From: an uncultured Erysipelotrichaceae bacterium
GTDB lineage: Bacteria > Bacillota_I > Bacilli_A > RF39 > UBA660
Direction: 5' to 3'
Assembly (NCBI GenBank): GCA_902789225.1
Contig: CADANC010000003.1
Coordinates: forward strand, 58,731 to 122,730
DNA length: 64,000 nt
Position numbers and translations under genes: made by a program. Below are positions 14,876 to 57,755 of this stretch, one piece after another; position 1 is the stretch's first letter; every line of letters begins with the position of its first letter. The notes under the pieces were generated by a model that searched no databases, was not told where the DNA came from, and saw nothing but the letters and a program-made list of their open reading frames with translations.

Positions 14876-14879
14876 ATTA

Positions 14880-16982: not shown

Positions 16983-16983
16983 A

Positions 16984-18048: not shown

Positions 18049-18056
18049 AGTATCAC

Positions 18057-19819: not shown

Positions 19820-19820
19820 T

Positions 19821-31976: not shown

Positions 31977-33741
31977 TATAATCCCTCTTAAACATTTTAT
32001 CTAATTCATCTCTAGTATAAGTAATAATTGTAGGTCTACCATGAGGACATGTAAAAGGATTATCACAATATCTAACATTATCTACAATCCATTGCATGTC
32101 ATCAATACTTAAATATTCATGAGCTTTAACACTATTATGACAAGCAATACTCATAATAGTAGTATCAATAAATTTTTCTTTAGAAAAATCACCTTTTTGA
32201 CAAATAAGTTCAAAAATATTATTTATCTCTTTAGAAGAATTCTTTTGATCTATCCATTGAGGATGAGATCTAACTAAAAACGTTCCTTCACCAAATTCTT
32301 CACAAGATATACCAAGTTCTTCTAAAATATATAATCTATCTTTTATTCTTAGATAATTATCTTTACTTAACTCTATTTTTATTGGAGTTAATAAATCAAT
32401 TACAGTGCTTCCTCCATTTAAGAATTCACTCATATATTTTTCATAGTTAATTCTCTCAGCAGCAGCATGTTGGTCAACTAGATAAAAACCATCTTCGTTA
32501 TAACATAAAATATATGTCATAAAAACATTACCAATTACATTCATTTTATTTATTCTAGCAACTCTTGCTTCGCTCTCTTCCAAAGAATCAGCTATATCTT
32601 CTTTTTCTTCATGAACTTCAAAATCCAATTTTATTTCTTCATAATTCTTTTCTTCTTTTTTTAAAACTTTTTCTTCTTCATCATCAACATGTTTAATCTG
32701 ATTATAAACTTCATTAAAAGAAGTAGATGTTCTAACATTAGCTTCAGGAATTAAAGTAAGAGTTTTTAATCTATCATTAATAGAATTACTAATTAGTTTT
32801 AATAAACTATCTAACTTAGAAAACTTAATATCCATTTTAGTAGGATGAATATTAATATCTACTAAGATAGGATCTACATCAATATTAAGAACAATAATAG
32901 GATATCTTCCTTTATGAACGTAGGTATGATAACTATCTATAATACATCTATTTAAATCATTATTTTTAATAACTCTTCCATTAACTAAAGTAGTAATACT
33001 ATTTCTATTAGATTTAGTTACTTCAGGATAAGAAATATATCCAGTAATACTATAATCATCATTAGATGCATCAATAGGTATCATCTTTTTAGTAATATTA
33101 GCCCCATATATATCATAAATTACTTTTAGTAAATCACCATTACCAGAAGTTTCTAATAATACATTATCATTATTACTTAATTTAAATTTTATATTAGGAT
33201 AAGATAAAGCCATCTTATCAATATATTCAACTATATTAGCAAGTTCAACATATAAATTCTTTAAATACTTTAATCTTACTGGAGTATTATAGAATAAATC
33301 ACTTACAATGATATCAGTACCTTTTGCTAAATCACATGATTTAACTTTCATATCATTTCCACCATTTATAGTAATTAAAGTACCTACTTTGCCATCACTA
33401 GTCTTAAGTCTAACTTTACTAACACTAGCTATACTTGGAAGAGCCTCACCTCTAAATCCTAATGATTCAATATAAAACAAATCATCCAAATTACTTATCT
33501 TACTAGTGGCATGCCTTTGAAAAGCAAGTTTAGCATCTTCTCTACTCATACCAATACCATTATCATAAACTTCTATTTCTTTAACTCCAGAATCAGTTAA
33601 TTTAATTTCTATTACATCAGCTTCACCATCAATAGAATTTTCAACAAGTTCTTTGACAACATTCATGCATGATTCAACAACTTCACCAGCTGCTATTTTA
33701 TTTGCTAAGTTGTCATCCATTACTTTAATTTTATTCATCAA
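31969..33741 (-). CDS. mutL: DNA mismatch repair protein MutL
   Basis: The GHKL ATPase motifs are ELVENSIDG and DNGIGMSREDAKLAFQRHATSKI. A C-terminal dimerisation domain is present. The gene overlaps miaA by 8 nt. Confidence 0.9.
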   Translation of the reverse strand: MMNKIKVMDDNLANKIAAGEVVESCMNVVKELVENSIDGEADVIEIKLTDSGVKEIEVYDNGIGMSREDAKLAFQRHATSKISNLDDLFYIESLGFRGEALPSIASVSKVRLKTSDGKVGTLITINGGNDMKVKSCDLAKGTDIIVSDLFYNTPVRLKYLKNLYVELANIVEYIDKMALSYPNIKFKLSNNDNVLLETSGNGDLLKVIYDIYGANITKKMIPIDASNDDYSITGYISYPEVTKSNRNSITTLVNGRVIKNNDLNRCIIDSYHTYVHKGRYPIIVLNIDVDPILVDINIHPTKMDIKFSKLDSLLKLISNSINDRLKTLTLIPEANVRTSTSFNEVYNQIKHVDDEEEKVLKKEEKNYEEIKLDFEVHEEKEDIADSLEESEARVARINKMNVIGNVFMTYILCYNEDGFYLVDQHAAAERINYEKYMSEFLNGGSTVIDLLTPIKIELSKDNYLRIKDRLYILEELGISCEEFGEGTFLVRSHPQWIDQKNSSKEINNIFELICQKGDFSKEKFIDTTIMSIACHNSVKAHEYLSIDDMQWIVDNVRYCDNPFTCPHGRPTIITYTRDELDKMFKRDYNE

Positions 33742-33785
33742 ATCACATTCTTTCTAAATGAAGTCTATACTAATTGTTTAAATAA

Positions 33786-34199
33786 TTAACAGCTAATTTT
33801 TTTACCATTGTCTTTAGATTTTTTTCCAGAATAATATACTCTACACTCATTAGTACAATCAAGTTTAACCTTAAATGTATATTCTGATACTTCAGTAGAA
33901 TCATCTTCAGTAATAAAAACCTTTCCATCACAAAATCCCTTATTTGATGGATCAATAGGTTCATCCATATAACCCTGATTATATAAATCTCTAATATCAT
34001 ATTCAGTATTTCCTGTTTGTAAATCATTCATATACTTGCCTTGAGCAGCTGAATAAGCAGATTCATAAATATTATCATATGCACGATTTCTAGTCTTACC
34101 AATATATTTAGTTACTGCTGGTAATGCAACAGCAAACAAAATACCAATTATAACAATCACACCAAGTAACTCTATCATAGAAAACCCTTTATTATTCAT
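33786..34199 (-). CDS. prepilin-type N-terminal cleavage/methylation domain protein (type IV pilin / pseudopilin)
   Basis: The start was placed at MNNKGFSMIELLGVIVIIGILFAVALPAV (ATG at 34199, RBS gaggtg). The class III signal is G|FSMIE with Glu at +5. The 137-aa protein has three Cys residues in its C-terminal half. Confidence 0.7.
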   Translation of the reverse strand: MNNKGFSMIELLGVIVIIGILFAVALPAVTKYIGKTRNRAYDNIYESAYSAAQGKYMNDLQTGNTEYDIRDLYNQGYMDEPIDPSNKGFCDGKVFITEDDSTEVSEYTFKVKLDCTNECRVYYSGKKSKDNGKKISC

Positions 34200-34237
34200 A
34201 AAACACCTCACTATAAATATTATCTAAAATAATTATA

Positions 34238-36004
34238 CTACATTTCTTCATCAAGTGACTCTTTTAATTTAGTAGCGACTTCCTCCGGAACCACTTCACT
34301 AAGTTCATCAATAGAAGCTTCTTTAATTTTTTTTAAAGAGCCAAATCTCTTTAATAATTCTTTCTTACGAACTTCTCCAATACCCTCAATTAAATCTAAT
34401 CTAGAAGCAAGAGCACCTTTAGATTTAATATTTCTATGGTATGAAATAGCATATCTATGTACTTCGTCTTGTATCTTAGTTAAAAATAAGAATAAATTAG
34501 TATCTTTACTTACTTCTAATATTTCATAATTAGAATTCATAATAGCATTAGTTCTATGCTTATCATTTTTAACTAAACCAATAATAGTAATATCTAAATG
34601 TAAAGAATCTATAATTTCCTTACAAACAGCAATTTGAGTCTTGCCACCATCCATAACAATAATATCAGGCATAACTCCATTATCCATTAGTAATCTATAA
34701 TATCTTCTATAAATAACTTCTCTCATAGCACTCAAATCATCTTTAACAGAAACATCTAATTTAAATTTACGATATTCATTCTTATTAGGTAAAAAATCAT
34801 CAAAAACAACCATACCACCTACATAATAAGTACCAAATAAATGAGAATTATCAAAAGCCTCAATTCTAGAAGCACTAGAAATATTAAGTAATTCTCTCAA
34901 TTCTTTAACAGCATTAATTCTTTTTAAATCATCTTTTTCAATAGTCTCTTCTCTTAATCTAAATTGCTCTTCTGCATTCTCTTTAGCTAGATCAATTAAT
35001 TTTTTTATTTTCCCTTTACTAGGCTTATAAACATTAATATTAAAATACTCACTCATAAGATCAATATCAAATTCATCTGATACATATAATTCATGAGGCA
35101 TTATACCCTGTTTATCATAAAATTTAATTAAATATTCTAAAGAAGCTTCAACAGGATCATCTAAGCAACCAATAATCTCATTATGTCTACCAAACAATAA
35201 TCCATTTCTTATAAAGAATATTTCTATACTTAAATAATTCTTATCACAGTAATAATTAACTACATCAAAATCATTACTATTATTAAGATCTATTTTTTGT
35301 CTCTTTAATGTTGTATTAATATCATCAATCATAATTTTATATTCTTGTGCTCTTTCATAGTTCATATCATTTGATGCCTCTAACATTTTTTCATTAAGCT
35401 TAGATGTAACAATTGAACTATTTCCTCTTAAGAATGATTTAATCTCTTCTATCATTTCATTAATCTTATCTTCATCAATATTTAACTTACAATAACCTAA
35501 ACATTCATGAATATGATAGTAAAGACATAAATCTTTCTTTAAATGATCACATTTTCTTAATGGATATACTCTATTTATTATTTCTACAGTTCTACGAGCT
35601 GCTCCTGCATTAGGATAAGGTCCAAATAAATTACCCTTCATTTTCTTTCTTTTAACATTTCGAACAACTTTAACTACAGGATATTTTTCATGAGTAACCT
35701 CAATATATGGATAACTCTTATCATCACGAAGTAATATATTATATTTAGGATCATATTTTTTTATTAAAGTAATTTCTAATATTAAGGACTCTAATTCAGA
35801 TGAAGTAACTATATATTCAAAATCATCTATATCTTCAACTAACATTCTAGTTTTACCGGTAACTGTTCTAGTAAAATAACTTCTAAGCCTTCTTTGTAAG
35901 TTTTTAGCTTTTCCTACATATATTATTACCCCATCTTTATTTTTCATTTGATAACTACCAGGTTTAGTAGGAACAAGAGCAAGTTTATCTTTAAAATCCT
36001 TCAT
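34238..36004 (-). CDS. uvrC: excinuclease ABC subunit C
   Basis: The N-terminal GIY-YIG motif is GVIIYVGKAKNLQRRLRSYF. UvrBC-interaction, RNase H-like and C-terminal HhH domains follow. The protein is 588 aa. Confidence 0.9.
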   Translation of the reverse strand: MKDFKDKLALVPTKPGSYQMKNKDGVIIYVGKAKNLQRRLRSYFTRTVTGKTRMLVEDIDDFEYIVTSSELESLILEITLIKKYDPKYNILLRDDKSYPYIEVTHEKYPVVKVVRNVKRKKMKGNLFGPYPNAGAARRTVEIINRVYPLRKCDHLKKDLCLYYHIHECLGYCKLNIDEDKINEMIEEIKSFLRGNSSIVTSKLNEKMLEASNDMNYERAQEYKIMIDDINTTLKRQKIDLNNSNDFDVVNYYCDKNYLSIEIFFIRNGLLFGRHNEIIGCLDDPVEASLEYLIKFYDKQGIMPHELYVSDEFDIDLMSEYFNINVYKPSKGKIKKLIDLAKENAEEQFRLREETIEKDDLKRINAVKELRELLNISSASRIEAFDNSHLFGTYYVGGMVVFDDFLPNKNEYRKFKLDVSVKDDLSAMREVIYRRYYRLLMDNGVMPDIIVMDGGKTQIAVCKEIIDSLHLDITIIGLVKNDKHRTNAIMNSNYEILEVSKDTNLFLFLTKIQDEVHRYAISYHRNIKSKGALASRLDLIEGIGEVRKKELLKRFGSLKKIKEASIDELSEVVPEEVATKLKESLDEEM

Positions 36005-36073
36005 ATAATCACTTCCAACTCATATTATAACATAATATCATAAATAAAAAGGAAGTAAACACTTCCTTAATTA

Positions 36074-38479
36074 TTATTGACTATTTTCTACTTCATCCAA
36101 AAGATTTTCTCCATCATCTTCTTCATCAGCAATTAACTTATCTTCCTCATCTTTTTCGTCATATTTTATTTCGACATTTTGAGTAAAATCCATCTTCTCT
36201 TCAGTAGCAAGTTGTTCTTTAGCTTCATTAACAGTAATAGTTTCAACTTCTTGTTGAGGTGTTAAATCTTGTCTTCCAACTACTTCCCAATTATTAGAAC
36301 CATCAGGTTTCCTAATAACTCCAGTCTCTTCTAATTCATCAATGATACGACCTGCTCTATTATATCCAACTTTGAATTTTCTTTGAATCATAGAAGCGCT
36401 AGCTTTATTAGTAGAAGTAACCAAGTCTACTACTTCATCATATAAAGGATCTAAATCATTTATATTGATTCCAGCTCCACCTACACTAGCTCCAGATAAA
36501 TTTTCTAATGTAGCATCATATTGAGCTTCTTGTTGAGATTTAACATGATCACATATTCTTTTAATTTCATCATCTGTAATAAATGAACCTTGAATACGAG
36601 TAGGAGTATTAGTTCCAATAGGCATATATAACATATCACCTTTACCAAGAAGTTTTTCTGCTCCAACTGTATCAAGAATAGTACGAGAATCAATTCCAGA
36701 TCCTACAGCAAAAGCTATACGAGAAGGAATATTAGCCTTAATTAAACCAGTAATAACTTCAGTTGAAGGTCTTTGAGTTGCTACAATTAAATGCATTCCA
36801 GCAGCTCTAGCTTTTTGAGTAATACGTAAAATAGAATCTTCAACGTCTTTAGCAGCAACCATCATCAAGTCACTTAACTCGTCTATAATAATTACTATAT
36901 AAGGCATTCTCTTTTTCTTTTCACTATTTTTCTTATTTTCTTTATCAATATAATCATTATATGATTCAATGTTCTTTGTACCAGAATCACTAAATTGATG
37001 ATAACGTCTTTCCATTTCTTGAACCATTTTTTGAAGTAAAACACTAGCTTCCTTAGGATCATTAACAACAGGACACATCAAATGAGGAATATCATTATAA
37101 ACAGATAACTCAACTACTTTAGGATCCACCATAGCAAGTTTAACTTCATCAGGTTTAGCTCTCATCAATATAGAACAAATAATACCATTAACACATACAC
37201 TCTTACCAGAACCAGTAGTACCAGCAATAAGTAAGTGAGGCATCTTATCAATTCTACAAGTACCTATATCACCCATGATACTTTTACCTAGAGGAACTAA
37301 TAACTTTTGATCAAATTGAGATTTCATTTCATTAGAGTCAATTATTTCTCTAAAACTAACACTTCTAGGATGATCATTAGCAAACTCAATTCCTACAGTT
37401 CTCTTTCCAGGAATAGGAGCTTCAATTCTTACATCTTTTTTAGCAAGTTCTAAAGCAATTTCTCTATTAATACTTGTAATCTTATTAACACGTGTACCAG
37501 ACGCAACTTCTAACTCATATTGAGCAACAGTAGGTCCAACATGTACTTCTTTAACAGTAGCATTAATATTAAAATCTTTTAAAACATTTTCTAAATGTTG
37601 AATATTTTCATTAATAGCATCTTGTTGCTTATCATCATCAATATCATCTTTCTTAATTTCATTTAATAAATCAATACTAGGTAATTGATAATTCTCATTA
37701 ACAACAACTTCTTTTTTCTGAGGCTCACTCTTAACAATAACAGGCTGAGCTGCTTGATTATCTGCCACAGTATCTTTATGTAAACCAGTAATTATAGCAG
37801 TAGATGTTAATTCTTTTTCTTTTCCATCTTCTTCATCTTCATCATCATCTTCTTTAGAAGAATCAATTTTTTCTTTTATTTTTTCTTTTCCTTCAACAAA
37901 TTTTTCTGATATAGTTCCAAAGAAGTCAAATCCGATAATCATAAATAATCCAAATAGAATTAATAATCCAGATATAATATACATTCCTGCCATAGAAAAC
38001 AATTTAACAAATATTATAGCAAGAACACCACCAATAATACCTCCACCACAATAGAAGTAATTATTAATCTCTCCACCACTCATCATAGTCTTAAATGTAT
38101 CAATAATATGATTCATAGTATCATTAAATACAAACATAGCATTATTTCCGTTAGTAAAGAATCCTCTATGAAATAAAATAACAGCACCTAAGAATAATAA
38201 ATAAGCACCAATAAATCTAGTTGAAAATAAATCAGCATCTTCATCTTTTACTAATAGTACTAATCCAATTACAATTAATCCTGTCAATAATACATAACAT
38301 AATAAAGATCCAACTAATAGTATAGTTACCCAATGAATAAATTTTCCAACTATACCAAAATTACCAAATCCAAGTATACTTAAAATAATAAGAAATATAC
38401 CCGTCAATTGATTCTTATATCTAAAAACAACTTTCTTCTTTCTTCCTCTTTTAGCCATAGTCCTCACCCTATAAGTCAA
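36074..38479 (-). CDS. ftsK: DNA translocase FtsK/SpoIIIE
   Basis: An N-terminal 4-TM region is followed by an acidic linker. The motor domain has Walker A (GTTGSGKSV) and Walker B (YIVIIIDELSDL) motifs. A C-terminal gamma winged-helix domain is present. Confidence 0.9.
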   Translation of the reverse strand: MTYRVRTMAKRGRKKKVVFRYKNQLTGIFLIILSILGFGNFGIVGKFIHWVTILLVGSLLCYVLLTGLIVIGLVLLVKDEDADLFSTRFIGAYLLFLGAVILFHRGFFTNGNNAMFVFNDTMNHIIDTFKTMMSGGEINNYFYCGGGIIGGVLAIIFVKLFSMAGMYIISGLLILFGLFMIIGFDFFGTISEKFVEGKEKIKEKIDSSKEDDDEDEEDGKEKELTSTAIITGLHKDTVADNQAAQPVIVKSEPQKKEVVVNENYQLPSIDLLNEIKKDDIDDDKQQDAINENIQHLENVLKDFNINATVKEVHVGPTVAQYELEVASGTRVNKITSINREIALELAKKDVRIEAPIPGKRTVGIEFANDHPRSVSFREIIDSNEMKSQFDQKLLVPLGKSIMGDIGTCRIDKMPHLLIAGTTGSGKSVCVNGIICSILMRAKPDEVKLAMVDPKVVELSVYNDIPHLMCPVVNDPKEASVLLQKMVQEMERRYHQFSDSGTKNIESYNDYIDKENKKNSEKKKRMPYIVIIIDELSDLMMVAAKDVEDSILRITQKARAAGMHLIVATQRPSTEVITGLIKANIPSRIAFAVGSGIDSRTILDTVGAEKLLGKGDMLYMPIGTNTPTRIQGSFITDDEIKRICDHVKSQQEAQYDATLENLSGASVGGAGININDLDPLYDEVVDLVTSTNKASASMIQRKFKVGYNRAGRIIDELEETGVIRKPDGSNNWEVVGRQDLTPQQEVETITVNEAKEQLATEEKMDFTQNVEIKYDEKDEEDKLIADEEDDGENLLDEVENSQ

Positions 38480-38543
38480 TTATACAATAAAAGAAATAAA
38501 AAAAAAAGAACTAGACAGTTCTTAAATTTTTATAGACAATTAA

Positions 38544-39101
38544 TTATGCTCTAGAAACATATTTTCCATCTGAAGTAGAAACAACTATAGTTTCCCCTTC
38601 TTCAATGAATAAAGGAACTCTAACTAATAGTCCAGTCTCAACAGTAGCATCTTTTAATGCATTGTTAGTAGTATTACCCTTAACAGCAGGTTCAGTATGA
38701 GTTACTTTTAAATTAATCTTATCAGGAAGATCTATACCAATAACTTCTCCTTCAAAAGAAGTAATATAAACTTCTGCATTTTCGATTAAATAATTAACTC
38801 CATCACCTAAATGATCTTTAGTTAAACTAATTTGTTCATAAGTTTCCATATTCATAAAATAATATTCATCACCCATAGAATATAGATATTGCATTAATTG
38901 TTTTTCAATTCTAGCAGTCTCAACTTTAACACCAGCATTAAATGTTTTTTCAAATATAGCTCCACTTCTTAAATTCTTAAGTTTTGCTTTAACTATTGCT
39001 GCACCTTTACCAGGTTTAACATGTTGAGTTTCCATTACTACAAAGATCTCACCATCTACTTGAATAGTAATACCATTTTTTAAATCATTAGTGCTTATCA
39101 C
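38544..39101 (-). CDS. efp: elongation factor P
   Basis: The start codon is GTG at 39101, preceded by RBS gggagg. The KPGKGAA loop carries the modified Lys. The 185-aa protein has the three-domain EF-P layout. Confidence 0.9.
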   Translation of the reverse strand: MISTNDLKNGITIQVDGEIFVVMETQHVKPGKGAAIVKAKLKNLRSGAIFEKTFNAGVKVETARIEKQLMQYLYSMGDEYYFMNMETYEQISLTKDHLGDGVNYLIENAEVYITSFEGEVIGIDLPDKINLKVTHTEPAVKGNTTNNALKDATVETGLLVRVPLFIEEGETIVVSTSDGKYVSRA

Positions 39102-39117
39102 TTAGATTACCTCCCTA

Positions 39118-39282
39118 TTACTTTTTCTCCTTATGTTCAGTATGTTTTCTACAAGTTGGACAATATTTGCTTAATTCAAGACGATCAACTGTTTTCTTAA
39201 CATTTTTTTCTACACGATAATTTTCTTGACCACATACACCACAAACTAATGTTTTGTATTGTCTATTTCCTACCTTTGCCAT
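39118..39282 (-). CDS. rpmG: 50S ribosomal protein L33 (Cys4 zinc-ribbon type)
   Basis: This gene is not in the ORF track. The minus-strand translation is [54 protein letters not shown] (54 aa) and matches L33 (C..C..NY...RLEL.KYC..C.KHT.H.E.K). The RBS is aggagg. Its stop codon abuts the efp RBS. Confidence 0.75.
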
Positions 39283-39310
39283 TTCAATACCTCCTTTAAC
39301 GCCTGTATAT

Positions 39311-39338
39311 ATTATAACAAAATTCTTTTAAATATCAA
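39311..39338 (-). promoter_or_regulatory. predicted sigma-A promoter for rpmG-efp
   Basis: Read on the minus strand, TTGATA is the -35, a 16-nt spacer follows, and TATAAT is the -10. The element lies about 30 nt upstream of the rpmG RBS. Confidence 0.45.
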
Positions 39339-39350
39339 GATTTTTTATCA

Positions 39351-40523
39351 TTAAACAATAACATATGGATTATCTATTGTTCCATCACCCATTTGAACTA
39401 AAGTATTAACTTTAAGTTCAATAACAGGTCGAACCCCAAACTCTTGATCTAAAGTATAAGTATTATTTAAAGGTTTACTACCATTTATAGCATACATTTT
39501 ACTAGATCCATTAAAACCATTACTACCAAGTAGCCAATAATTACCACCATTATATAAGTAATAAGTTGAATTACCTCTACTTGATTTAATAGAACCATTA
39601 CCCGCTAAAATAGCTTCTTCTACACTTAATAATCCAATAGGATAAGAAAGTTTACCATTACTCATATTAATACTATATTCCTTATCACAACTAATACTAG
39701 GCATACCTTTATATATTCTATAACTAGTACAATAATACTTGTCTTTACCATCTAATATTCTTTGAATATAGTTAGGAATAATATAATCCATATAACTTGA
39801 ATCTACCTTTTCTTTTGTTTTTTCTTCTAAATATTTATTTTCATCTATTAGAGACTTTTCATCTTTAGAAGCCATACTTTCTAAATAACCATACCAATTC
39901 ATAACACTAGTATCATTACAAAAATTAATATCTTGATTTAAATAATCTTTATAAATATCTAAATTTTCAATATACCATTTATCAATAAAACTTTTAATTA
40001 AAGAATCACTATAACTAATATATTTTTCTCCTCTATAACTCTTATTATAAGGACTATTACCAATAGTAGTATCTAAAACATTACATGTATTATCACTAGA
40101 TAATCCAGAATAAATTAATCTAATAGAACCAGTATCAGTAGTTCTAACAATTCTAAAACAATGACTACCTAATTTAACATAATTAGTATTAACTACACCT
40201 CTATAATAATAAATAGGATAACTATCATTAATAGTACTATCAATCACATATAATCCTGAAGTAGTAACATCTTCACTAGATTTAGTATAATTAATTCCTT
40301 TATCACTAATAGGATTACTATCTCTAATTATTTGATTTAAACCGCTAATTTCAACAGTACCACTATTATGAGATAAATCTTTTATTTCACATCCACTATT
40401 AGTATAGATTTTACCACTTAATAATAAATATTTAACTAAAAAGAAAATTCCAACTAATATACCTATAATAAATATAAAAGTAAAAAGATTACTAAAAAAC
40501 CCACCTTTTTTTTCTTTTTCCAT
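39351..40523 (-). CDS. large membrane-anchored exported protein at the end of the pilin cluster (possible large minor pilin / tip-associated protein)
   Basis: The N-terminus is KKGGFFSNLFTFIFIIGILVGIFFLV, a prepilin-like hydrophobic segment that lacks Glu at +5. The exported domain of about 350 aa is Ser/Asn/Tyr-rich and contains Cys pairs. Confidence 0.4.
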   Translation of the reverse strand: MEKEKKGGFFSNLFTFIFIIGILVGIFFLVKYLLLSGKIYTNSGCEIKDLSHNSGTVEISGLNQIIRDSNPISDKGINYTKSSEDVTTSGLYVIDSTINDSYPIYYYRGVVNTNYVKLGSHCFRIVRTTDTGSIRLIYSGLSSDNTCNVLDTTIGNSPYNKSYRGEKYISYSDSLIKSFIDKWYIENLDIYKDYLNQDINFCNDTSVMNWYGYLESMASKDEKSLIDENKYLEEKTKEKVDSSYMDYIIPNYIQRILDGKDKYYCTSYRIYKGMPSISCDKEYSINMSNGKLSYPIGLLSVEEAILAGNGSIKSSRGNSTYYLYNGGNYWLLGSNGFNGSSKMYAINGSKPLNNTYTLDQEFGVRPVIELKVNTLVQMGDGTIDNPYVIV

Positions 40524-40583
40524 ATATAATCACCCTACACTAAGATTATAACATAAAAAAAAGAATATAAATAAATTATATTC

Positions 40584-41048
40584 TTAACCTTCTTTACAAT
40601 AATAATTTGCATTACTATAATCAAAATTAAACTTGTCAGAAGTTACATCACTTTTACTTACTTTACTATAATCGTTATCACCTGAATTAAGTGTATAAGT
40701 TCCATCAGTCAAATAAACACTATAGGTTTCGTCAGCAACATTAATTCTAACATATCCTTCGTATTTATCACTTTTATCAAATAACACTTTAGATTCATCT
40801 TTACCAATCAAAATATAAAAGTTTTGTGCTGGTATTGTAACAACTGATTTGAAATTTGTACCATCATTAGAACAAATCAATCCATCATTTTGATATAAAG
40901 TTTTAACTTGTTTACCATAACTATTAGCTGCACTTACTAAATTTTTCTTATATGTAGTTCCACCCATACTTCTAGTATAGAATAGAACAAGTCCAAAAGC
41001 TGCTGCAATAATAATTATAAATATAATTATAATTAAACTCTTCTTCAT
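40584..41048 (-). CDS. small membrane-anchored exported protein in the pilin cluster
   Basis: An N-terminal TM segment (LIIIIFIIIIAAAFGLVLF) is followed by a 120-aa exported domain. There is no canonical GFxxxE cleavage motif. Confidence 0.4.
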   Translation of the reverse strand: MKKSLIIIIFIIIIAAAFGLVLFYTRSMGGTTYKKNLVSAANSYGKQVKTLYQNDGLICSNDGTNFKSVVTIPAQNFYILIGKDESKVLFDKSDKYEGYVRINVADETYSVYLTDGTYTLNSGDNDYSKVSKSDVTSDKFNFDYSNANYYCKEG

Positions 41049-41052
41049 ATTA

Positions 41053-41640
41053 TTACCCCGTTACAACACATGGAGTACCAGTACCAGTTCCAGGAGTAGC
41101 TCCTGTAACAGCTACATCAGCTCTAGTTAATTGATCAGCAGGAACTCCACTACTAGGGTTAGCTTTATCAGCAACAATTCCATGTCCACCAGTATCAACC
41201 ATAGAAACATAATAAGTTAGTTTAATACTATCAGCTCCACCTGAGGCACCTGCAGTAACCTTTTCAACATGAACTTGAACAAAGCCTTCAACATCAGCTG
41301 TACCCCAAGAAGACTTACCACCATCTCCGATTAAAGCAGAAGCATTACTATAAGCTTCGCTAGAATCTGCTGAAGTCTTAAATGCCACATAGTAATTAGC
41401 GTTATCAGAAGGTAAAGCACTAGCAACTTTTCTGTCAGTACCAGTACCACATGATATTTCATCGGCAGCCCATCCATTTCTAACAGCTTGAACATAAGTC
41501 TGTGCAGTAGTAATAAAAGTATTTTTTCTAGCATTTTCAATTGTTCTAGAAACAGCAGGTATAGCAACTAACATCAATATACCTAAAATAGTAATAACAG
41601 CAAGTAACTCAATTAATGTAAATCCTTTTTTATCAATCAT
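41053..41640 (-). CDS. type IV pilin-like protein with a Gly/Ala/Thr/Pro-rich C-terminal region
   Basis: The start was placed at MIDKKGFTLIELLAVITILGILMLVAIPAV (ATG at 41640, RBS aggaga). The class III signal is G|FTLIE. Two Cys residues (EISCGTG and TPCVVTG) could form a domain-spanning disulfide. The C-terminus ends ...TGATPGTGTGTPCVVTG. Confidence 0.7.
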   Translation of the reverse strand: MIDKKGFTLIELLAVITILGILMLVAIPAVSRTIENARKNTFITTAQTYVQAVRNGWAADEISCGTGTDRKVASALPSDNANYYVAFKTSADSSEAYSNASALIGDGGKSSWGTADVEGFVQVHVEKVTAGASGGADSIKLTYYVSMVDTGGHGIVADKANPSSGVPADQLTRADVAVTGATPGTGTGTPCVVTG

Positions 41641-41716
41641 ATTTATTCTCCTATCTTTACAATAAAAATATATCACAATATTATTTTTTAAACAATACGT
41701 TTACACATTTTATAAA

Positions 41717-42349
41717 CTATTTGTCATTAGCATCATATAATACAGCATGTGTATTTTGAAGACTATTATAATTTGAAGGATAAGTAGCTGATATATAAAA
41801 TGCAGGATACAAACCAGAGAACTCTGTTAAAGGCCAAGTTATAGCATCACCCCTATTTTTAATAAAATCTTTTGTTTTTTTACCATCAACTTCAAATTCA
41901 TTAACATCTATTAGCTTAACTCCACGATCCGCACCAGATGCAGCACAAGTACAATTAGACTCACTACAACCAGAATTTACATTTTTGCATTCAATTAATT
42001 GTACATAATATTTATATGTTCCACCTCCATTGCAAACCAAAACATATGATAAGTGCGAATAATATGCACCACCTTGTGGAGGATCATTAAAATCGCCATT
42101 ATCTAGAAATGATAAATCCATCAAAGTACATCGTCCATTCGTAGGTTTACTTACACTATCATCAGTAGTACCTCGTACTTTATATGAAGCAACCGTTGCT
42201 AGCTTTTTGGCATCCTCAACATAAATAGTATTTTTTTGATTATTTAAAATACTCATAATATTAGGAGCAGCAACTGCCATAAGCAATCCTAATATTACTA
42301 ATGCAGCAAGTAATTCAATTAAAGTAAATCCTTTTCTATTTATTTTCAT
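41717..42349 (-). CDS. type IV pilin-like protein (Cys-rich)
   Basis: The N-terminus is MKINRKGFTLIELLAALVILGLLMAVAAPNI, a class III signal with Glu at +5. The 210-aa protein has about 10 Cys residues in its exported domain. Confidence 0.7.
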   Translation of the reverse strand: MKINRKGFTLIELLAALVILGLLMAVAAPNIMSILNNQKNTIYVEDAKKLATVASYKVRGTTDDSVSKPTNGRCTLMDLSFLDNGDFNDPPQGGAYYSHLSYVLVCNGGGTYKYYVQLIECKNVNSGCSESNCTCAASGADRGVKLIDVNEFEVDGKKTKDFIKNRGDAITWPLTEFSGLYPAFYISATYPSNYNSLQNTHAVLYDANDK

Positions 42350-42392
42350 ATCATCACCATCTTAATTATATCACAAACAAAAAAAAAGAAAG

Positions 42393-43043
42393 TTATTTTA
42401 ATTCACTTTCTATCATTTTTATTTTTTTCTTGATAAGAAACTGTCTACTCCAATCACTTTTAGGTAGAAGTTTTTGAATAATTTGATTACTTTTTAATTC
42501 TCTTTCATAATATTCATAAAATAACTTATCTTTATTTTGTAATAATATAGGTCCAAAATAATATTCTTTTTTCTTATATCTTTTCTTACCTTTTTTAAAT
42601 ACTAAAATATTATAAATATATTTATCTTTAACTAATACTTCATTTTCTATATAATATCCTATCCTAACTAAGTATTTTCTAACAGCTTCAATATAATTAT
42701 TAGGACTTAAAATAAAAGTATCAATATCTTTAATCTTAGAAATATTATTTCTAATTATACCTATAATATTTATACCACCCATTCCACATATAATAACTCC
42801 ATCTTCACCATTATATGCATCAAGGCCATCTCCTAATCTAAGTTCACCATCAACTTTATTAGATTTAAAATTCTTTCTAGCATTATCTAGTGGTCCTTGT
42901 TTATTGTCTGATCCAACTATTTTAATATTTTTTTTTAATAGATAAACTTCTAATAGTCCATGATCACAACCTATATCTAAATAAGAAAGATCACTTGTAG
43001 TTAATTCACTTATTGCTTTTAACCTATTATTTAACTTTATCAT
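42393..43043 (-). CDS. trmK: tRNA (adenine22-N1)-methyltransferase TrmK (YqfN-like)
   Basis: [17 protein letters not shown] matches the TrmK SAM-binding motif. The gene sits immediately downstream of sigA as in Bacillus (dnaG-sigA-yqfN). Confidence 0.7.
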
Positions 43044-44137
43044 TCAGTTAAGAAATCCTTTAATTTTCTAGATCTAGAAGGATGTTTTAATTTACGTAAA
43101 GCTTTAGCTTCAATTTGACGAATTCTCTCACGTGTAACTCCAAAGATTTGTCCAACTTCTTCTAAAGTTCTACATTGACCATCATCTAATCCAAATCTTA
43201 ATCTTAATACTTTTTCTTCTCTTTCAGTTAGAGTTGCTAAAACATTATTTAATTCTTCTTTTAACATCTCAACTGTAGCATATTCTTCAGGTCCCATTGT
43301 ATGACCATCAGGAATAAAATCACCTAAATGAGAATCTTCTTCTTCTCCAATAGGAGTTTCTAAAGATACAGGATCTTGAGATATCTTATATACTTCTCTA
43401 ACTTTATCTACTGTAATATCTAATCTTTCAGCAATTTCTTCATCTGTTGGTTCTCTATTTAATTCTTGAGTAAGTTGTCTTTGTACTCTAGCTAATTTAT
43501 TAATAGTCTCAACCATGTGTACAGGAACTCTAATAGTTCTAGCTTGATCAGCTATAGCTCTAGTAATAGCTTGTCTAATCCACCAAGTTGCATAAGTAGA
43601 AAACTTATAACCTTTACTAGGATCAAACTTATCTACTGCTTTCATTAATCCAATATTTCCTTCTTGAATTAAATCTAAGAATAACATTCCACGTCCAACA
43701 TATCTTTTAGCAATACTAACAACAAGTCTTAAATTTGATTCAGCAAGAACTCTCTTAGCTTCTGGATCTCCTTCTTCAACTCTTTTAGCATATTCAAATT
43801 CTTCAGCACTAGTAAGTAAGTTAATTCTACCTATTTCTTTTAAATACATTCTAACAGGATCATTAATCTTTACATCTTTACTAAGTGTTAAATCTTCTAC
43901 ATTAGTAGTATCAGTAATTTCTTCTCCAGTAGCATCATCTTCAGTTTCACCTTCACTTGAAACTACATTTACACCTGCATCAACTAAATTATTATATAAT
44001 TCATCTAATGCATCACTATCCATATCAAGGCCTTTTAATTCATCAGCTAATTGTTCATAAGTGATATAACCTTGTTTTAGACCTAAATCAATTAATTTCT
44101 TTTCTCTTTCTTCAAGAGTCTTAATTTCCCCTATCAT
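43040..44137 (-). CDS. sigA: RNA polymerase primary sigma factor (sigma-70 / SigA)
   Basis: Regions 1.2 through 4.2 are present. The -10 recognition helix is [23 protein letters not shown]. The region 4.2 HTH is [29 protein letters not shown]. Confidence 0.9.
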
Positions 44138-44139
44138 AG

Positions 44140-45876
44140 TTACTCTCCCATCCTAAGCTTAGTAATTCTATCAGCAATTTTAGCTTGTTCAACTGGATCA
44201 TATTCTTTCTTTATTAAAGATGTTAATCTCTCTATTTCTTTCCTAAGACTATAATTCTTCACTACATTAAAATAGTCCATTAATTCATCTTTGTCAACCT
44301 TATCCACATAATTATCATCTAAAATTTCATTTAGAATACTAAGAACATCTTCACTATTAGATGCATAAGTATAAAAATCTGCAATATTAATACTTCCATA
44401 TTTATGATAATAATAAATAATTTCAGCATTTAAGAGTCTATATTTATCAGTAGGATAATTCAAATGAGCTTTTTCAACTTCATTAATAACCCAATCGTTA
44501 TTTAACATAAAATATAAAATTTGCTCTATAGCCTTCTGATATTTATCTTTTCTCTTCTTTTTCTTAATATCTTTAGGAATATTAATATTAACAACATTTT
44601 CATTTTTACTAAATCTCTCTAGTTGCTTTTCCAACGTATTATAACTCAAATCATATTCTTTTGCAAGACTTCTAAGTTCAATTTCTTTCCTAACAGGATC
44701 ATTTATTTTAGCAATCTCTTTTAATACATTATTTATATAATTAGATTTTTCTTCAACACTATTAAAATTAACATTTTCTTTTAACTTATCTATTTTATAA
44801 TCACTAAAATTAACAGCATTTTCAAGTAAAGATAAAAACTTATCTTTACCATTATTCATTATAAATGTATCAGGATCATCTGGATTAGGAAGAGGAAGTA
44901 CTTTTACTTCAACTCCTTCTTTTAAGAATAATTCACCATTCTTTAAAGTAGCGTTAACTCCAGGATCATCACCATCTAAACATAAAATAATATTATTACT
45001 TAATCTTTTAATTAAACTAATTTGTTCTTTAGTTAAAGCAGTACCCATCAAAGCAACAGTATTTCTAACACCAATAGTACTCGCTCTAATAACATCCATA
45101 AATCCTTCCATTACTATAATGGAATGAGCGACTCTAGCTTCTTCTCTAGCTTCTTCATAGTGATATAACATTTCACTTTTCTTAAATATAGGACTTTCTT
45201 TAGTATTTACATATTTAGAAGTATCAACATCTTTATAAATTCTTCCACTAAAGCCAACATAATGTCCATAAATATCTTTTAAAGGAAACATAATCCTATC
45301 TATATACATATCGTGTTCACTAGAAGACAATCCAATATCATTTAAAGTAGAAATACTATATTTCTTACCTACAAGTAATTTAGTTAAATCATCTCGACTA
45401 GGTAAAGATAATCCTATTTCAAATTCTTTAATTACATCTTCACCTAATTTTCTATTTTTCAAATATTCTTTAGCAGCTTTACCCATAGTAGAATTCAAAT
45501 TATTTTGATAATACTTAGTAGCTAAATCATATGCTTCATATAAATTGTCATATTTAGTTGTTTTCTTTTCTACTTTAACAGAAGAAACATCTACTCCACA
45601 TTTATCTCCTAAATACTTTAAAGCACTCCGAAAATCAACATGATCATAATTCATAATGAAGTTAAATACATTTCCAGCTGCTCCACAAGAAAAACATTTA
45701 TAAATTTGTTTATCTCTAGATACACTCATAGATGGATTTGTATCGTCATGAAAAGGACAAACACCCCAAAAGTTTTTGCCCTTCTTAACTAAAGGTAATC
45801 TTTCCCCAATAATATCAACTATATCTATTTTATTTCTAATAGCATTAGCTAAATCATTATTCAAGAAAATCACCAC
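44140..45876 (-). CDS. dnaG: DNA primase
   Basis: The N-terminal zinc-binding motif is [13 protein letters not shown]...[18 protein letters not shown] core (EGFMDV...DGDDPG) and a C-terminal helicase-binding domain follow. Confidence 0.9.
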
Positions 45877-46334
45877 CTTCTCTTTACTTTAATTCTATGT
45901 AACCTGTCTTTATGAAATTCACCAAATTCTTTGTAATCTTCATTATATTTACTTCTATAAAAAATATTTTTTCTAGATAAATTATTAGATTGAATCCTAC
46001 CATTATAATGACTAATATTAAGAACATAACTATAAAAAGTAGTCTTTCCTAACCTATAAACATCTATATAGTTATCATCATCTAATACATTTAAACATCT
46101 ATTAAAATAAACATTATAAATACTATTAAGTTCTAATTCTTTATCATATATTGCTAATACATCTGAAACATCTCTTCCAAGAATAGATTTAACTTCACAT
46201 CTATTTCTATTCTCTTTTATACCAATTCTATGATCTCTCATATATTCTAATACAATACCAAAGTATCCAGAAACATAATCAGAATCAGTAACATCAGATA
46301 CATCAATTGTCTCTAAATATTTTTCATAATCCAT
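45870..46334 (-). CDS. hypothetical cytoplasmic protein translationally coupled to dnaG
   Basis: A 154-aa intact ORF that overlaps the dnaG start by 7 nt and begins 3 nt after the yqeH stop. I recognise no motif in it. Confidence 0.4.
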   Translation of the reverse strand: MDYEKYLETIDVSDVTDSDYVSGYFGIVLEYMRDHRIGIKENRNRCEVKSILGRDVSDVLAIYDKELELNSIYNVYFNRCLNVLDDDNYIDVYRLGKTTFYSYVLNISHYNGRIQSNNLSRKNIFYRSKYNEDYKEFGEFHKDRLHRIKVKRRW

Positions 46335-46337
46335 ATT

Positions 46338-47357
46338 CTAAATTAATGATTTTCTAAAGAAAATCTCCACTTCCTTATTAACATAAACATTAATTTTACC
46401 TTTACTAGATATCTTAACAAAACCAAGTCCACTAACAACTAAATCATTATCATATTTAACATCATAAGTACTTTTATTTAAATCAGTCAATTTAGTATTA
46501 TTTATATTTATTCTTTCTATTTTTAATTCATTAGATACAAAAACAGCAAAACTATTTCTAATACCTTCTAAATAATCAATTCTTACCAAGTCATTAATAA
46601 TGATACCTTGTCCAGCTCTAAGCTGGTAAATTCTAGGTTTAATCTCTTTCTTAGGACTAATCTTTTTAACTAATTCAATAGGAAGATTATTAATAATACT
46701 TCCAGAATCAATCAAACCAGGAGTATCAATTAAAGTTAAATAATCATTAACTACAATACTCAAAGTATTTAAAGTAGTACTAGGAAGAGGACTACTAGTT
46801 AAAGAATCAGCATTCTCACTATAGTTTCTAATAATATTATTAATTACACTACTCTTTCCAGCATTAGTTCTACCTACTACATAAACATTCTTACTAGTTT
46901 GATAATATTTAATTTTCTTTAATAAATAATCCATATTAAAATTATTAATTGTACTTACAGGAATAATCTCATCAAAGAAAATATTATAATTATTAAAATA
47001 TTCAACAAGTTTTTCTTCTTTAACACTCTTAGGTAAAACATCTCTTTTATTTAGAACTAATATCATCTTATTAGGAATAATATCTCTAATAACATCAAAA
47101 TCTTTCTCTAAATTAATTAGATCTGTAACATAAAGAACTAAATCATGAGTCTTACCTACAGCTTCTAACATCTTCATATATTCAACATTATTGTTAGTTA
47201 CAAGTTGATATTCCCCATAATTTTTTATTCTAAAACATCTTTGACAAAAATCATTTTCTAAATTTGTGGTGTATCCTGGCATTAATATATTCTCATCTTG
47301 TAAGAGGACACCGCACCCTAAACATTTTTTCTCATTCATAATATTTTCCTCTTTCAA
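46338..47357 (-). CDS. yqeH: ribosome biogenesis GTPase YqeH
   Basis: The N-terminal zinc finger is CLGCG...CQRCFRIKNYG. The GTPase domain is circularly permuted, with G4 (LNKRD) preceding G1 (GRTNAGKSS). Confidence 0.85.
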   Translation of the reverse strand: MKEENIMNEKKCLGCGVLLQDENILMPGYTTNLENDFCQRCFRIKNYGEYQLVTNNNVEYMKMLEAVGKTHDLVLYVTDLINLEKDFDVIRDIIPNKMILVLNKRDVLPKSVKEEKLVEYFNNYNIFFDEIIPVSTINNFNMDYLLKKIKYYQTSKNVYVVGRTNAGKSSVINNIIRNYSENADSLTSSPLPSTTLNTLSIVVNDYLTLIDTPGLIDSGSIINNLPIELVKKISPKKEIKPRIYQLRAGQGIIINDLVRIDYLEGIRNSFAVFVSNELKIERININNTKLTDLNKSTYDVKYDNDLVVSGLGFVKISSKGKINVYVNKEVEIFFRKSLI

Positions 47358-47847
47358 ATATTCCTTTTTTCATATATCTTTTAATAATAGCATTTTCTAT
47401 CTTTCTATTTAAGAAAGTAATCTTCATATCTTTTTCACCTAAAGGATCAACTAATATAGTTTTAATACGAAATCTATTACCAGCAAAAACATCAGTAACT
47501 ATTTGATCTCCTATTATAACCATTTCTTTTTTCTTTAGATTATAATTCCTTTTTACTCTTCTTAATCCAATTGTACTAGGTTTAAAACTCCAACTAACTC
47601 CACCAATACCTAAATCTTTTAAGTAAGGTTCTATTCTACTTCTAGTATTATTAGAACAAATAAGTACTAAAAAATCTTTTTTTAAGCTTTTTAGTAAATC
47701 CTTAGTTTTTTTAGGACACTTCTCATTACTAATCAAACCTAAAGTATTATCAAGATCATAAATTAAGCAAGTAACTCCTTCTTCTTTTAGTTTTTCATAG
47801 TCAATATGATAAATATCTTTGTAATATCTAGTTGGTCTAAACCTCAT
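47332..47847 (-). CDS. yqeG: HAD-superfamily phosphatase YqeG
   Basis: HAD motif I is CLIYDLDNTL. The gene is adjacent to and overlapping yqeH, as in the conserved yqeG-yqeH pair. Confidence 0.8.
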   Translation of the reverse strand: MRFRPTRYYKDIYHIDYEKLKEEGVTCLIYDLDNTLGLISNEKCPKKTKDLLKSLKKDFLVLICSNNTRSRIEPYLKDLGIGGVSWSFKPSTIGLRRVKRNYNLKKKEMVIIGDQIVTDVFAGNRFRIKTILVDPLGEKDMKITFLNRKIENAIIKRYMKKGIFERGKYYE

Positions 47848-47892
47848 AAAATCACCGCCATTATTATATAAAATAATATAGAATAAATCAAA

Positions 47893-49302
47893 TTAGTACT
47901 TAAATTTCTTAAATATAGTTTTTAATGTTTCAGCAGCAAATTTTCTATTCAAAACAACTGCATAAATAATTGATAATATTGCAACAACTATATTTATATA
48001 TAAATTATTATAGTAATATGCAACAAAAGCTATTATGAAAACACACACTAAAGAAAATATACTTCTTTTATTAAAAGTGATTTTCATATATTTTTTCAAA
48101 TCAAAGTATCTACTCATCATCATAGTAAAGTATGCTACTGCTGTAGATATTGCTGCTGCAAAAAGGCCTATTTTTTTAATAAAACATATATTTACAACTA
48201 TATTTATAATAGCTCCAATAATAGTAACATAAGCTACTTCTTTAGTCTTTTTAAGTCCAATATAGATTCCAGTATATAAAACAATAACTACATTAAATAC
48301 ATATGCTACTACAAGTATAGGAATGTACTTAAGAGCTTCATTGAACTTAGAATTAACAAATATTGGAAATACAAAAGGCATTAATGTAATAAGTAATAAT
48401 CCAACACATCCAAATAATTTAATCATTGAGTTAATAATTTCAGAGAAAAATTCTTCTCTATCTTTATCATTTATATGTAAAGCACTACTCTCACTCCAAC
48501 TTAAATTAAAAATACCAAGTAATGCATTCATTATAGTTGGAAATTTATTACTAATTGCATAAATACCATTAGCAGCTGTTCCTATTACCCAAGATACTAT
48601 TGTTCTATCAGATACATTAACTATCCACCAACTAATACTATTTGGGACTAGTGGAAGTGAATAACCTAACATCTTTTTAATTAACTTTGTATCTTTTAAT
48701 TTAATAGAAAAATATTTATATAATTTTAATCTAAAGAATATATAAACACAACATATAAAATTAGCAAAAGCCATAGAGAAGATCATACCAGTTTCTTTAT
48801 AGCCTAAACCACAAATTAAAATAATATTAGAAATAATTGTAACAAGACCAGTCACAATACAAGCAATACTATAATCTATAGTTTTTCCCATACCACGACA
48901 AACTTGTAATAAATCATCCCCTATAGTACAAACAACTACAGAAAAATATATTAATAATTTATAAGGAAAATCAACAAATAAACAAACAATACCATATATA
49001 ATACTAAATATTAATAAAGCGCCTAATATAATATAGAAGTTATTAGTAATATTAGATTTATTATCTTTATCTTTTCCCCTACTATCAACTAAAAATCTAA
49101 ATACACTCATTCCACTTTGAATAGATATTATAGGTACAAACAAAGTTACATAAGTCTGAATTAAATCTACAATACCATATTCTTTAGTACTTAAATAAGC
49201 TGTATATAAAGGTAATAAAAAGAACGATATTAACTGAGTTGAAGTTTTTCCTATAAATAAAATAATCGTATTCTTTATGAGTTCTTTTTTCTTTTTATCC
49301 AT
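47893..49302 (-). CDS. MOP-superfamily flippase (MurJ/Wzx-like, SpoVB/YtgP-type)
   Basis: A 469-aa polytopic protein with about 14 TM helices. It sits next to murE. Confidence 0.65.
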   Translation of the reverse strand: MDKKKKELIKNTIILFIGKTSTQLISFFLLPLYTAYLSTKEYGIVDLIQTYVTLFVPIISIQSGMSVFRFLVDSRGKDKDNKSNITNNFYIILGALLIFSIIYGIVCLFVDFPYKLLIYFSVVVCTIGDDLLQVCRGMGKTIDYSIACIVTGLVTIISNIILICGLGYKETGMIFSMAFANFICCVYIFFRLKLYKYFSIKLKDTKLIKKMLGYSLPLVPNSISWWIVNVSDRTIVSWVIGTAANGIYAISNKFPTIMNALLGIFNLSWSESSALHINDKDREEFFSEIINSMIKLFGCVGLLLITLMPFVFPIFVNSKFNEALKYIPILVVAYVFNVVIVLYTGIYIGLKKTKEVAYVTIIGAIINIVVNICFIKKIGLFAAAISTAVAYFTMMMSRYFDLKKYMKITFNKRSIFSLVCVFIIAFVAYYYNNLYINIVVAILSIIYAVVLNRKFAAETLKTIFKKFKY

Positions 49303-56428: not shown

Positions 56429-56430
56429 AA

Positions 56431-57747: not shown

Positions 57748-57755
57748 CTTATCAC

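Follow-up and report, generated by a model that had tools for sequence, protein, structure and literature searches.

Orphan type IV prepilin genes downstream of trmK in an uncultured low-GC Bacilli bacterium, with a predicted leaderless pilin paralog and a putative lectin-like surface protein

We analysed a stretch of 64,000 nucleotides (nt) of contig CADANC010000003.1 (positions 58,731 to 122,730; assembly GCA_902789225.1) from an uncultured Erysipelotrichaceae bacterium, hereafter referred to as the window, and in particular the cluster of four pilin-related and surface-protein genes that lies at positions 39351-42349, between trmK and rpmG. All open reading frames (ORFs) of at least 100 amino acids (aa) were read outside positions 33000-48000 and all of at least 50 aa within them, and the accessible sequence comprised the 64-kb window plus the 10-kb flanks of relatives. 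The window has a GC content of about 25% and carries nearly all of its genes on the minus strand, where the order yqeG - yqeH - 154-aa ORF - dnaG - sigA - trmK - four ORFs - rpmG - efp - ftsK - uvrC - small ORF - mutL - miaA was found. The four ORFs of the cluster share one strand, the minus strand, at the positions given for them by a previous sequence-only reading of this DNA (the first-pass annotation). The host is an uncultured walled low-GC member of the Bacilli from gut or rumen, and murE, murG, murB, ftsA, ftsZ and divIB are all present in the window.

Judged by their sequences, the first two genes of the cluster encode bona fide type IV prepilins. Pilin1 (41717-42349, minus strand) is a protein of 210 aa with the leader MKINRKG/FTLIELL, in which the slash marks the predicted cleavage site, and a Cys-rich globular domain that varies strongly from strain to strain; pilin2 (41053-41640, minus strand) has 195 aa and the leader MIDKKG/FTLIELL. 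In both proteins a short basic leader ends in Gly(-1) and is followed by Phe(+1), by Glu(+5) and by some 20 residues of hydrophobic alpha1N helix, and both exceeded the cut-offs of Pfam PF07963 (N_methyl; 35.6 bits for pilin1 and 34.2 bits for pilin2, cut-off 21.2) and of TIGR02532 (32.9 and 33.5 bits, respectively, cut-off 16.3). The leaders MKINRKG/F and MIDKKG/F were kept in all orthologs. The first-pass annotation had described two pilin-sized proteins of 210 and 207 aa with canonical class III leaders; the leaders and the length of pilin1 stand, while 195 aa is the more likely length of pilin2. Its start is most likely the ATG at 41640, with the ribosome-binding site (RBS) AGGAGA (41647-41652) located 6 nt upstream, while the GTG at 41676, from which the 207-aa form would start, falls inside a predicted promoter; metagenome gene callers give pilin2 a size of 195-197 aa.

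Pilin1 and pilin2 are members of two different families and not near-identical paralogs. The pilin1 family has at least 377 members, and the exact pilin1 protein was also detected on metagenome contigs that share the gene order of the window (among them L001, of 58 kb). For the pilin2 family, 8637 representative homologs were retrieved at E<1e-3, and 310 representatives at E<1e-10. Where the two proteins matched PDB sequences, the match covered only the alpha1 helix of type IV pilins with solved structures, such as PilE1 of Streptococcus sanguinis (8pfb).

The third gene, p154 (40584-41048, minus strand), encodes a protein of 154 aa in which an N-terminal transmembrane (TM) segment (MKKSLIIIIF...) precedes an alpha1C-like helix and a region of beta-sheet. 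Four nt lie between the pilin2 stop codon and the p154 start codon, and p154 would be co-transcribed and probably translationally coupled with pilin2. Neither a G/FxxxE motif nor a match to N_methyl or to any other Pfam or NCBIfam family was found in p154. When it was aligned to the pilin2 of the window, 'KGF' was deleted and Ile replaced Glu5, with loss of G-1, F+1 and E+5, and the two conserved cysteines of p154, Cys59 and Cys151, both aligned with pilin2 cysteines. The regions in which a p154 profile matched pilin2-family representatives were the alpha1C helix (a..Y..qVktLw..DGL.C) and, in the beta-sheet, kGYVrinv and Y.v.ltDGt. After the TM segment had been taken out of the profile, 60 representatives of the pilin2 family were still recovered, with scores of up to 31.5 bits, versus a maximum of 11.4 bits for shuffled sequences, and no pilin1-family or p390-family member was; reciprocally, a hidden Markov model (HMM) of the pilin2 family matched residues 34-145 of p154 at 29.4 bits. 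Only nine close orthologs, 81-97% identical, were found by a word-based search, and an ortholog is annotated in a 'Bacilli bacterium' metagenome-assembled genome (MAG). By these alignments, p154 is a paralog (duplicate) of the pilin2 globular domain from which the cleavage site and Glu5 have been lost. The 154-aa protein had been proposed as a possible minor or tip pilin; on these scores its derivation from a pilin holds, but the prepilin leader is lost and p154 is therefore not an ordinary minor pilin. Because the cleavage site and Glu5 are missing, p154 is most likely an uncleaved, membrane-retained protein of pilin fold, which would serve pilin2 as a partner in assembly, as a base or anchor, or as a regulator, and would not itself polymerise.

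The fourth gene, p390 (39351-40523, minus strand), encodes a protein of 390 aa with a TM segment at residues 10-35, a disordered linker at residues 36-58 and an enlarged domain of the C-type-lectin-like kind (abbreviated CTLD) at about residues 60-390. An AlphaFold2 (AF2) model based on a 94-sequence alignment, with a predicted local distance difference test score (pLDDT) of 77, shows p390 as a TM helix joined by a disordered linker to a single large globular domain, without a pilin fold. The model superposed structurally on CTLD-core proteins of the group formed by the N-terminal domain of an IgA peptidase (IgAse-NTD), DUF1566 and DUF6273. By sequence p390 had no Pfam or NCBIfam match at E up to 1 and belongs to no curated family, a profile of the p390 family retrieved nothing relevant from the PDB sequences, and PF19789 was carried by only 2 of 102 p390 relatives. 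The N-terminal 'KKGG(S)FF' register of p390 is not conserved among orthologs and Glu5 is absent, and neither a class III leader nor a pilin module was recognised. As modelled, p390 is not a pilin; it would be a membrane-anchored, C-type-lectin-like surface protein, transcribed separately from its neighbours and probably a ligand-binding adhesin. The suggestion that the 390-aa protein could be a minor or tip pilin was thus not borne out.

The p390 family is large, with at least 578 genomic relatives, and it is multi-copy in gut 'Bacilli/Tenericutes/Mycoplasma sp. CAG:776' MAGs. Many paralogs per genome were observed, with at least 7 loci in Mycoplasma sp. CAG:776. The typical layout of family members (e.g. 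P0026, P0047 and L091 9029-13082) is a TasA/SipW-type N-terminus (...G-T/S-x-Y-A-Y/F-F...) and a beta-rich region ahead of the lectin-like domain. In a few other lineages the domain also meets pilins: P0063 (650 aa) is a true prepilin fused to a p390-type domain, a 568-aa prepilin-like protein beside PilB in the related locus L100 showed weak similarity to the p390 domain (27 bits), and in L007 and L094 a p390-family gene lies 2-5 kb from a pilin1-family gene. We read the p390-type domain as a portable ligand-binding module that is carried on several kinds of surface anchor, and regard the link between p390 and the pilus as plausible but loose. A further arrangement was observed at L078 1-7117 (and in L063), where a Tad-like operon encodes TadZ, TadA, TadB and TadC, followed by a 518-aa p390-family protein, a 174-aa protein with a TasA/SipW signal and two prepilin-like proteins (KKG/ITLIE and KNG/FVFIE), a mixture of Tad machinery with proteins of TasA-like and T4-pilin-like kinds.

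Two further orphan prepilin genes, both absent from the first-pass annotation, raise the total of prepilin genes in the window to four. One of them (33786-34199, minus strand; 137 aa, MNNKG/FSMIELL; PF07963 at 27.9 bits) lies between uvrC and mutL. The order uvrC-pilin-mutL was kept in L009 and in the distant L095, and in L009 this pilin was 64% identical, versus about 93-95% for its neighbours. The other (52190-52591, minus strand; 133 aa, ...KKNG/FTMVEVL) has a basic leader of 13 residues and is located directly downstream of ftsZ; it matched pilin-family HMMs at 51-54 bits, and the same gene in L001 gave a weak match to PF07963. Like pilin1 and pilin2, both of these genes have prepilin motifs that score above curated cut-offs. 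In L011, a locus that shares its sample of origin with L009, there is a fifth paralog downstream of pnp.

Comparison with close relatives revealed that the pilin genes diverge far more than the genes around them. Between the window and L001 the backbone proteins were 98-100% identical and pilin2 75.5%; at the nucleotide level identity was about 99-100% except in a sharply bounded block at about 41000-41550, which covers the pilin2 globular domain and was only 70-74% identical. Compared with L009 and L013, the backbone proteins were 93-99% identical, pilin1 63-64%, pilin2 76%, p154 83-90% and p390 81-83%. L013 is the nearest genome record, 'uncultured Firmicutes bacterium RUG343'; its synteny is the same, and its p390 is 83% identical. 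Among the divergent pilin2 alleles (window, L001, L009 and L013), residues 1-65 were 88-97% identical and those from 66 to the end 62-69%, and the alleles formed a mosaic in which conserved blocks alternate with variable loops. The C-terminal two-thirds of pilin2 is an allelic cassette; neither silent pilin cassettes nor repeats were found in the window. Such a pattern is the sequence signature of a filament subunit that is exposed and subject to diversifying selection, with alleles being replaced from one strain to another.

The absence of assembly genes reported in the first-pass annotation held in both the ORF reading and tblastn searches with proteins of related loci: PilB, PilC, PilD, PilT, PilM, PilN, TadZ/A/B/C, ComEA and ComEC were not found in the window or in ten related loci (best E = 0.02). 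Its suggestion that the machinery is encoded elsewhere is a sensible reading, given that related low-GC Bacilli carry PilB, PilC and PilD, often as scattered genes. In L067, a mouse-gut Bacilli MAG, the T2SSE ATPase gene pilB is monocistronic, and in L096, L098 and L102 PilB is accompanied only by 1-2 pilin genes. A metagenome scan with the L067 ATPase yielded close relatives at 26-31% GC, none of them attributable to this genome. Tad-type assembly was considered on account of L078 and L063 and dropped, as nothing Tad-like occurs in the window or its close relatives and the leaders in the window are of the classic T4a/Com type.

With moderate confidence, we propose that the cluster holds structural genes of a type IV filament, either a type IV pilus (T4P) or a filament of competence type, in transcription units of their own, and that the assembly genes lie elsewhere in the genome. 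A PilD/ComC-type peptidase would cut the pilin1 and pilin2 prepilins after the Gly of their leader motifs, and a PilB-type ATPase together with a PilC-type platform protein would polymerise them via their conserved hydrophobic N-terminal helices. The globular domains would then be exposed on the filament, under diversifying selection and subject to recombination between strains, phage or host being the possible selective agent. A conserved promoter of its own and a strong RBS make pilin2 the likely major pilin. We regard the whole as an ordinary dispersed pilus gene set and not as a novel system, dispersal of T4P genes being normal for these small genomes.

The position of the pilin pair supports this proposal. 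A tandem of a pilin1-family and a pilin2-family gene follows trmK in L009/L010, L013, L012 and L093, and the same pair also occurs in L095. In L012 trmK is only 63% identical and still precedes the pair, and in L093 the order is dnaG-sigA-trmK-pilin-pilin-nfo-PBP-rpmG-efp; the p154 and p390 genes are lineage-specific additions. In L100 (26.0% GC; sigA 71% identical to that of the window) the minus strand carries comEA - comEC - dnaG - sigA - trmK - PilC (T2SSF) - PilD (A24), with PilB (T2SSE) divergent and two prepilin-like genes beside it. In L110 (44% GC) the order is dnaG-sigA-trmK-nif3-x-PilB-PilT-PilC-PilA-PilD-PilMNO, with a complete cluster that starts about 2.9 kb after dnaG-sigA-trmK. 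In the PilC-like protein of L100 (locus 7630-20847; 714 aa), the T2SSF repeats are preceded by about 300 aa of unusual N-terminal extension. The placement of pilin genes next to a sigma-factor operon, which the first-pass annotation considered unusual, is therefore not so in this lineage: widely diverged loci have kept the order trmK-pilin-pilin, and in two other Bacillota contigs, L100 and L110, T4P core genes come after dnaG-sigA-trmK. In Erysipelotrichales, efp has been reported to have the comG operon directly upstream of it, and this operon to be vertically inherited (PMC12786226). Because T4P genes follow trmK in L100 and L110 and comG precedes efp in Erysipelotrichales, the trmK-efp interval is thus an old (ancestral) Bacillota T4P/comG site, at which only pilin genes remain in the lineage of the window.

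The same position raises the question of a competence (Com) pseudopilus for DNA uptake, that is, of a remnant comG operon whose comGA and comGB have been relocated, instead of an adhesive or motility pilus. We consider this rather unlikely. It would account for the location upstream of (rpmG-)efp, which matches that of comG in Erysipelotrichales (PMC12786226), for the presence in L100 of PilC, PilD and PilB after trmK in one block with comEA and comEC, and for the short basic leaders, which are as in Com pilins; in addition, the best weak NCBIfam matches of the pilins include ComGC, ComGD and ComGE. However, the ComGC scores (NF040999; 24.2 and 32.6 bits for the pilins) were far below the equivalog cut-off of 75 and came from the N-terminal 30-40 residues only, ComGC has only about half the size of the mature pilins, and strong hypervariability at strain level is more typical of the exposed major pilins of long pili. 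Furthermore, the ATPases of relatives score nearer to PilB/GspE than to ComGA, and no comE or comF genes were found in the window. GspG (TIGR01710, cut-off 88.85) was likewise not reached by either pilin (33.6 and 28.4 bits), the match again being confined to N-terminal residues. In sum, the large, hypervariable pilins favour an exposed pilus and the chromosomal position favours comG ancestry.

A different question is whether the cluster is expressed with the genes upstream of it. The genes dnaG (44140-45876), sigA (43040-44137) and trmK (42393-43043; PF04816 at 140 bits) lie on the minus strand, and the gap between trmK and pilin1, on the same strand, is 43 nt. A terminator-like hairpin with a stem of 7 bp, a loop of 11 nt and a U-tract (42379-42411, minus strand) overlaps the trmK stop codon; it is followed by an extended -10 element predicted upstream of pilin1, TGaTATAAT (42365-42373, minus strand), and by the pilin1 RBS GGTGA (42354-42358). 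A hairpin plus U-run was found at the same position in L010, L013, L012 and L093 despite their differing sequences, which makes five diverged loci including the window, and one compensatory change was observed (GAAAGU/ACUUUC in the window versus GAAAGC/GCUUUC in L010). The TATAAT and a GGTGAT RBS before pilin1 were kept in the same four loci. Upstream of pilin2, a promoter was predicted at 41667-41695 (minus strand; TTGTTT, 17 nt, TGaTATATT). The block that contains it, TGATATATT, is conserved in L001, L010, L013 and L012, and L012 retains TTGACT-17-TGaTATATT though the rest of the spacer upstream of pilin2 has diverged. Directly after p154 there is a second terminator-like hairpin (40555-40585, minus strand), with an AT-rich stem of 10 bp and U8 (-8.0 kcal/mol, z = -2.7), which is conserved in L001, L010 and L013. 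It is followed by an extended -10 element predicted upstream of p390, TGtTATAAT (40545-40553, minus strand), conserved in L001 and L010 and present as TGaTATAAT in L013, and rpmG is preceded by TTGATA-16-TGtTATAAT. From these signals, the likely transcription units are [pilin1], [pilin2-p154], [p390] and [rpmG-efp...].

The pilin cluster had been described as appended to the dnaG-sigA-trmK operon. Read-through from that operon, by which the pilins would be expressed constitutively with the housekeeping sigma factor, would fit the shared strand and the gap of only 43 nt after trmK, and it has a precedent in pilT-ftsA-ftsZ of Clostridium perfringens, where a T4P gene is co-transcribed with essential genes (PMC6958937). 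Some read-through at trmK is possible, because the window has only a weak hairpin there (-5.5 kcal/mol, z = -1.1) and termination may be leaky. Against this, five diverged loci have a hairpin with a U-tract at precisely this spot, one compensatory change was seen, and a conserved -10 element and RBS lie behind the hairpin; pilin2 and p390 have conserved promoter-like elements of their own, and the hairpin after p154 is the stronger one. A terminator and a separate promoter between trmK and the cluster, which the first-pass annotation itself had named as grounds for refuting its reading, were both predicted by computation, and the cluster probably does not belong to the sigA operon. We hold expression through the sigA operon to be unlikely.

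A bolder joint interpretation can be drawn, to which we give little credence. It holds that p154 represents an undescribed class of leaderless, pilin-derived membrane proteins: a duplicate of the major pilin, beyond cleavage and extrusion and translationally coupled to the hypervariable pilin2, it would serve as a dedicated subunit kept in the membrane to form the filament's base, its anchor or its terminator, or as a checkpoint of assembly. It holds further that p390 is a lectin partner which evolved in parallel from a modular pilin by loss of its leader; more radically, all T4P genes of the lineage would be scattered singly behind housekeeping operons as a regular architecture. Very unlikely, finally, is the proposal that the genes are relics in a reduced genome, either in decay or put to new use as membrane or surface proteins that need no machinery: machinery is indeed missing from the 64-kb window and from within 10 kb of ten related pilin loci, p154 shows that leader loss occurs in this lineage, and the genome is small with a low GC content (25%), but all four prepilin ORFs are intact with G/F..E N-termini perfectly conserved across strains and genera, variation is confined to loops of the globular domains, contrary to what neutral decay would give, the tandem pair has been kept across deeply diverged loci, and related low-GC Bacilli retain PilB, PilC and PilD.

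Several observations weigh against our proposal of a type IV filament with its own transcription units and remote assembly genes. No PilB, PilC or PilD of this organism was seen in the window and the flanks of relatives described above, and the assembly of these pilins is wholly inferred. The mature pilins, of 188-203 aa, are much larger than ComGC-type subunits and reach no NCBIfam equivalog cut-off, which leaves room for either type of filament. Besides the weakness of the trmK hairpin, promoter-like hexamers were not enriched over shuffled sequences in the AT-rich window (98 found versus 103.6 expected), and the predicted operon boundaries rest on conservation only. An AF2 model of p154 built from 11 sequences had a pLDDT of 45.9, too poor for a fold search. 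Finally, most p390-family members have TasA/SipW-like N-termini plus an extra beta-rich region, and an ORF with a prepilin motif was present within 10 kb at only 6 of 79 distant p390-family loci; a general linkage of this family to pilins was on that count largely rejected, sporadic fusions and adjacencies notwithstanding.

Other genes of the window deserve a brief description. The 154-aa ORF between yqeH and dnaG (45870-46334, minus strand) overlaps the dnaG start and has no family match; it is fast-evolving, being 69% identical in L013 versus 94-99% for its neighbours, and no match was found in L012. At 14330-15887 (minus strand) there is a membrane protein with a 'T4SS_pilin'-like N-terminal region (a weak Pfam match on the L094 counterparts) and a possible NlpC/P60-like C-terminal part (14880-15887). 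These genes resemble L007 12268-12852 and L094 13256-15212, which adjoin pilin1-family and p390-family genes there, a likeness that hints at a larger recurrent surface-protein neighbourhood. The small TM proteins at 14330-14875 and 45870-46334 were also checked as pilin-like candidates and proved not to be. Between ftsA and divIB (55112-59069, minus strand), three tandem paralogous genes in a stretch of very low GC content (17.5-20%) encode polytopic membrane proteins of 437-438 aa.

In the poorly understood, uncultured, small-genome Bacilli of gut and rumen, attachment, the uptake of DNA and susceptibility to phage are likely to be determined in part by surface filaments. For annotation, the pilin genes of this lineage are conserved and yet dispersed behind housekeeping operons, where pipelines that seek contiguous pil or comG operons will miss the system. 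Strain-level allele replacement in pilin2 can readily be used to mark the diversity of strains and selection on the cell surface, and experiments have concrete targets in the leaderless paralog of the pilin and in the widespread lectin family of IgAse-NTD-like type. Current understanding of type IV filaments is not overturned; the details of worth are the leaderless paralog coupled to the probable major pilin, the pilin2 allelic cassette, the IgAse-NTD-like lectin family and the positional homology with T4P/comG loci.

Among known systems, the T4P of C. perfringens comprise three loci with four pilins, one locus being the pilT-ftsA-ftsZ operon (PMC6958937). The window resembles this arrangement in that T4P genes occur at several sites, some of them beside cell-division genes (here a pilin gene after ftsZ), and in that individual pilins have promoters and terminators of their own; in C. 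perfringens, however, the pilins mostly still adjoin pilB, pilC and pilD, whereas all four pilins of the window are apart from the machinery. The comG operon of Erysipelotrichales, as in Bulleidia extructa (PMC12786226), shares with our locus the position relative to efp, prepilins with short leaders and a reduced-genome, walled Bacillota host. The window differs in lacking comGA and comGB, in pilins about twice the size of ComGC that fail the ComGC-GG equivalog cut-offs, and in the intercalation of rpmG before efp.

The closest known counterparts of p390 include the N-terminal domain of the IgA peptidase of Thomasclavelia ramosa (PDB 9qa6; PMC12237041) and C-type-lectin-like domains of the DUF1566/Lcl and DUF6273 types. 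However, p390 shows no detectable sequence similarity to them, has no metallopeptidase domain and no HExxH motif, and is anchored by an N-terminal TM segment and not by sortase. PilB and PilC of S. sanguinis are reportedly modular type IV pilins, in which an adhesin module is grafted onto a pilin module. The fusion of a p390-type domain to a canonical prepilin in P0063, and more weakly in the 568-aa protein of L100, is of this kind, whereas the p390 of the window lacks both the class III leader and the pilin module and so does not count as a modular pilin.

Pilin1 and pilin2 are themselves most like PilE1 and PilE2 of S. sanguinis (filament 8pfb), with which they share a short basic leader, the motif G/F(T/S)L(I/V)E, a conserved alpha1 helix and the adjacency of two pilin genes, and PilE1 of 8pfb was the best PDB sequence match for pilin2 (E 4e-5, residues 6-60). 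The likeness is confined to the N-terminal helix, the globular domains being unrelated by sequence. The S. sanguinis pilin genes are said to sit inside the pil machinery locus, whereas those of the window are orphans. Major pilins such as the pilA groups of Pseudomonas aeruginosa and pilE of Neisseria reportedly show allelic or antigenic variation. Pilin2 resembles them in its conserved N-terminus, its hypervariable C-terminal globular domain and the recombination-bounded block that separates otherwise identical strains; unlike Neisseria pilE, it is found in a window without silent pilS-like cassettes, and its variation looks like allele replacement between strains rather than intragenomic gene conversion.

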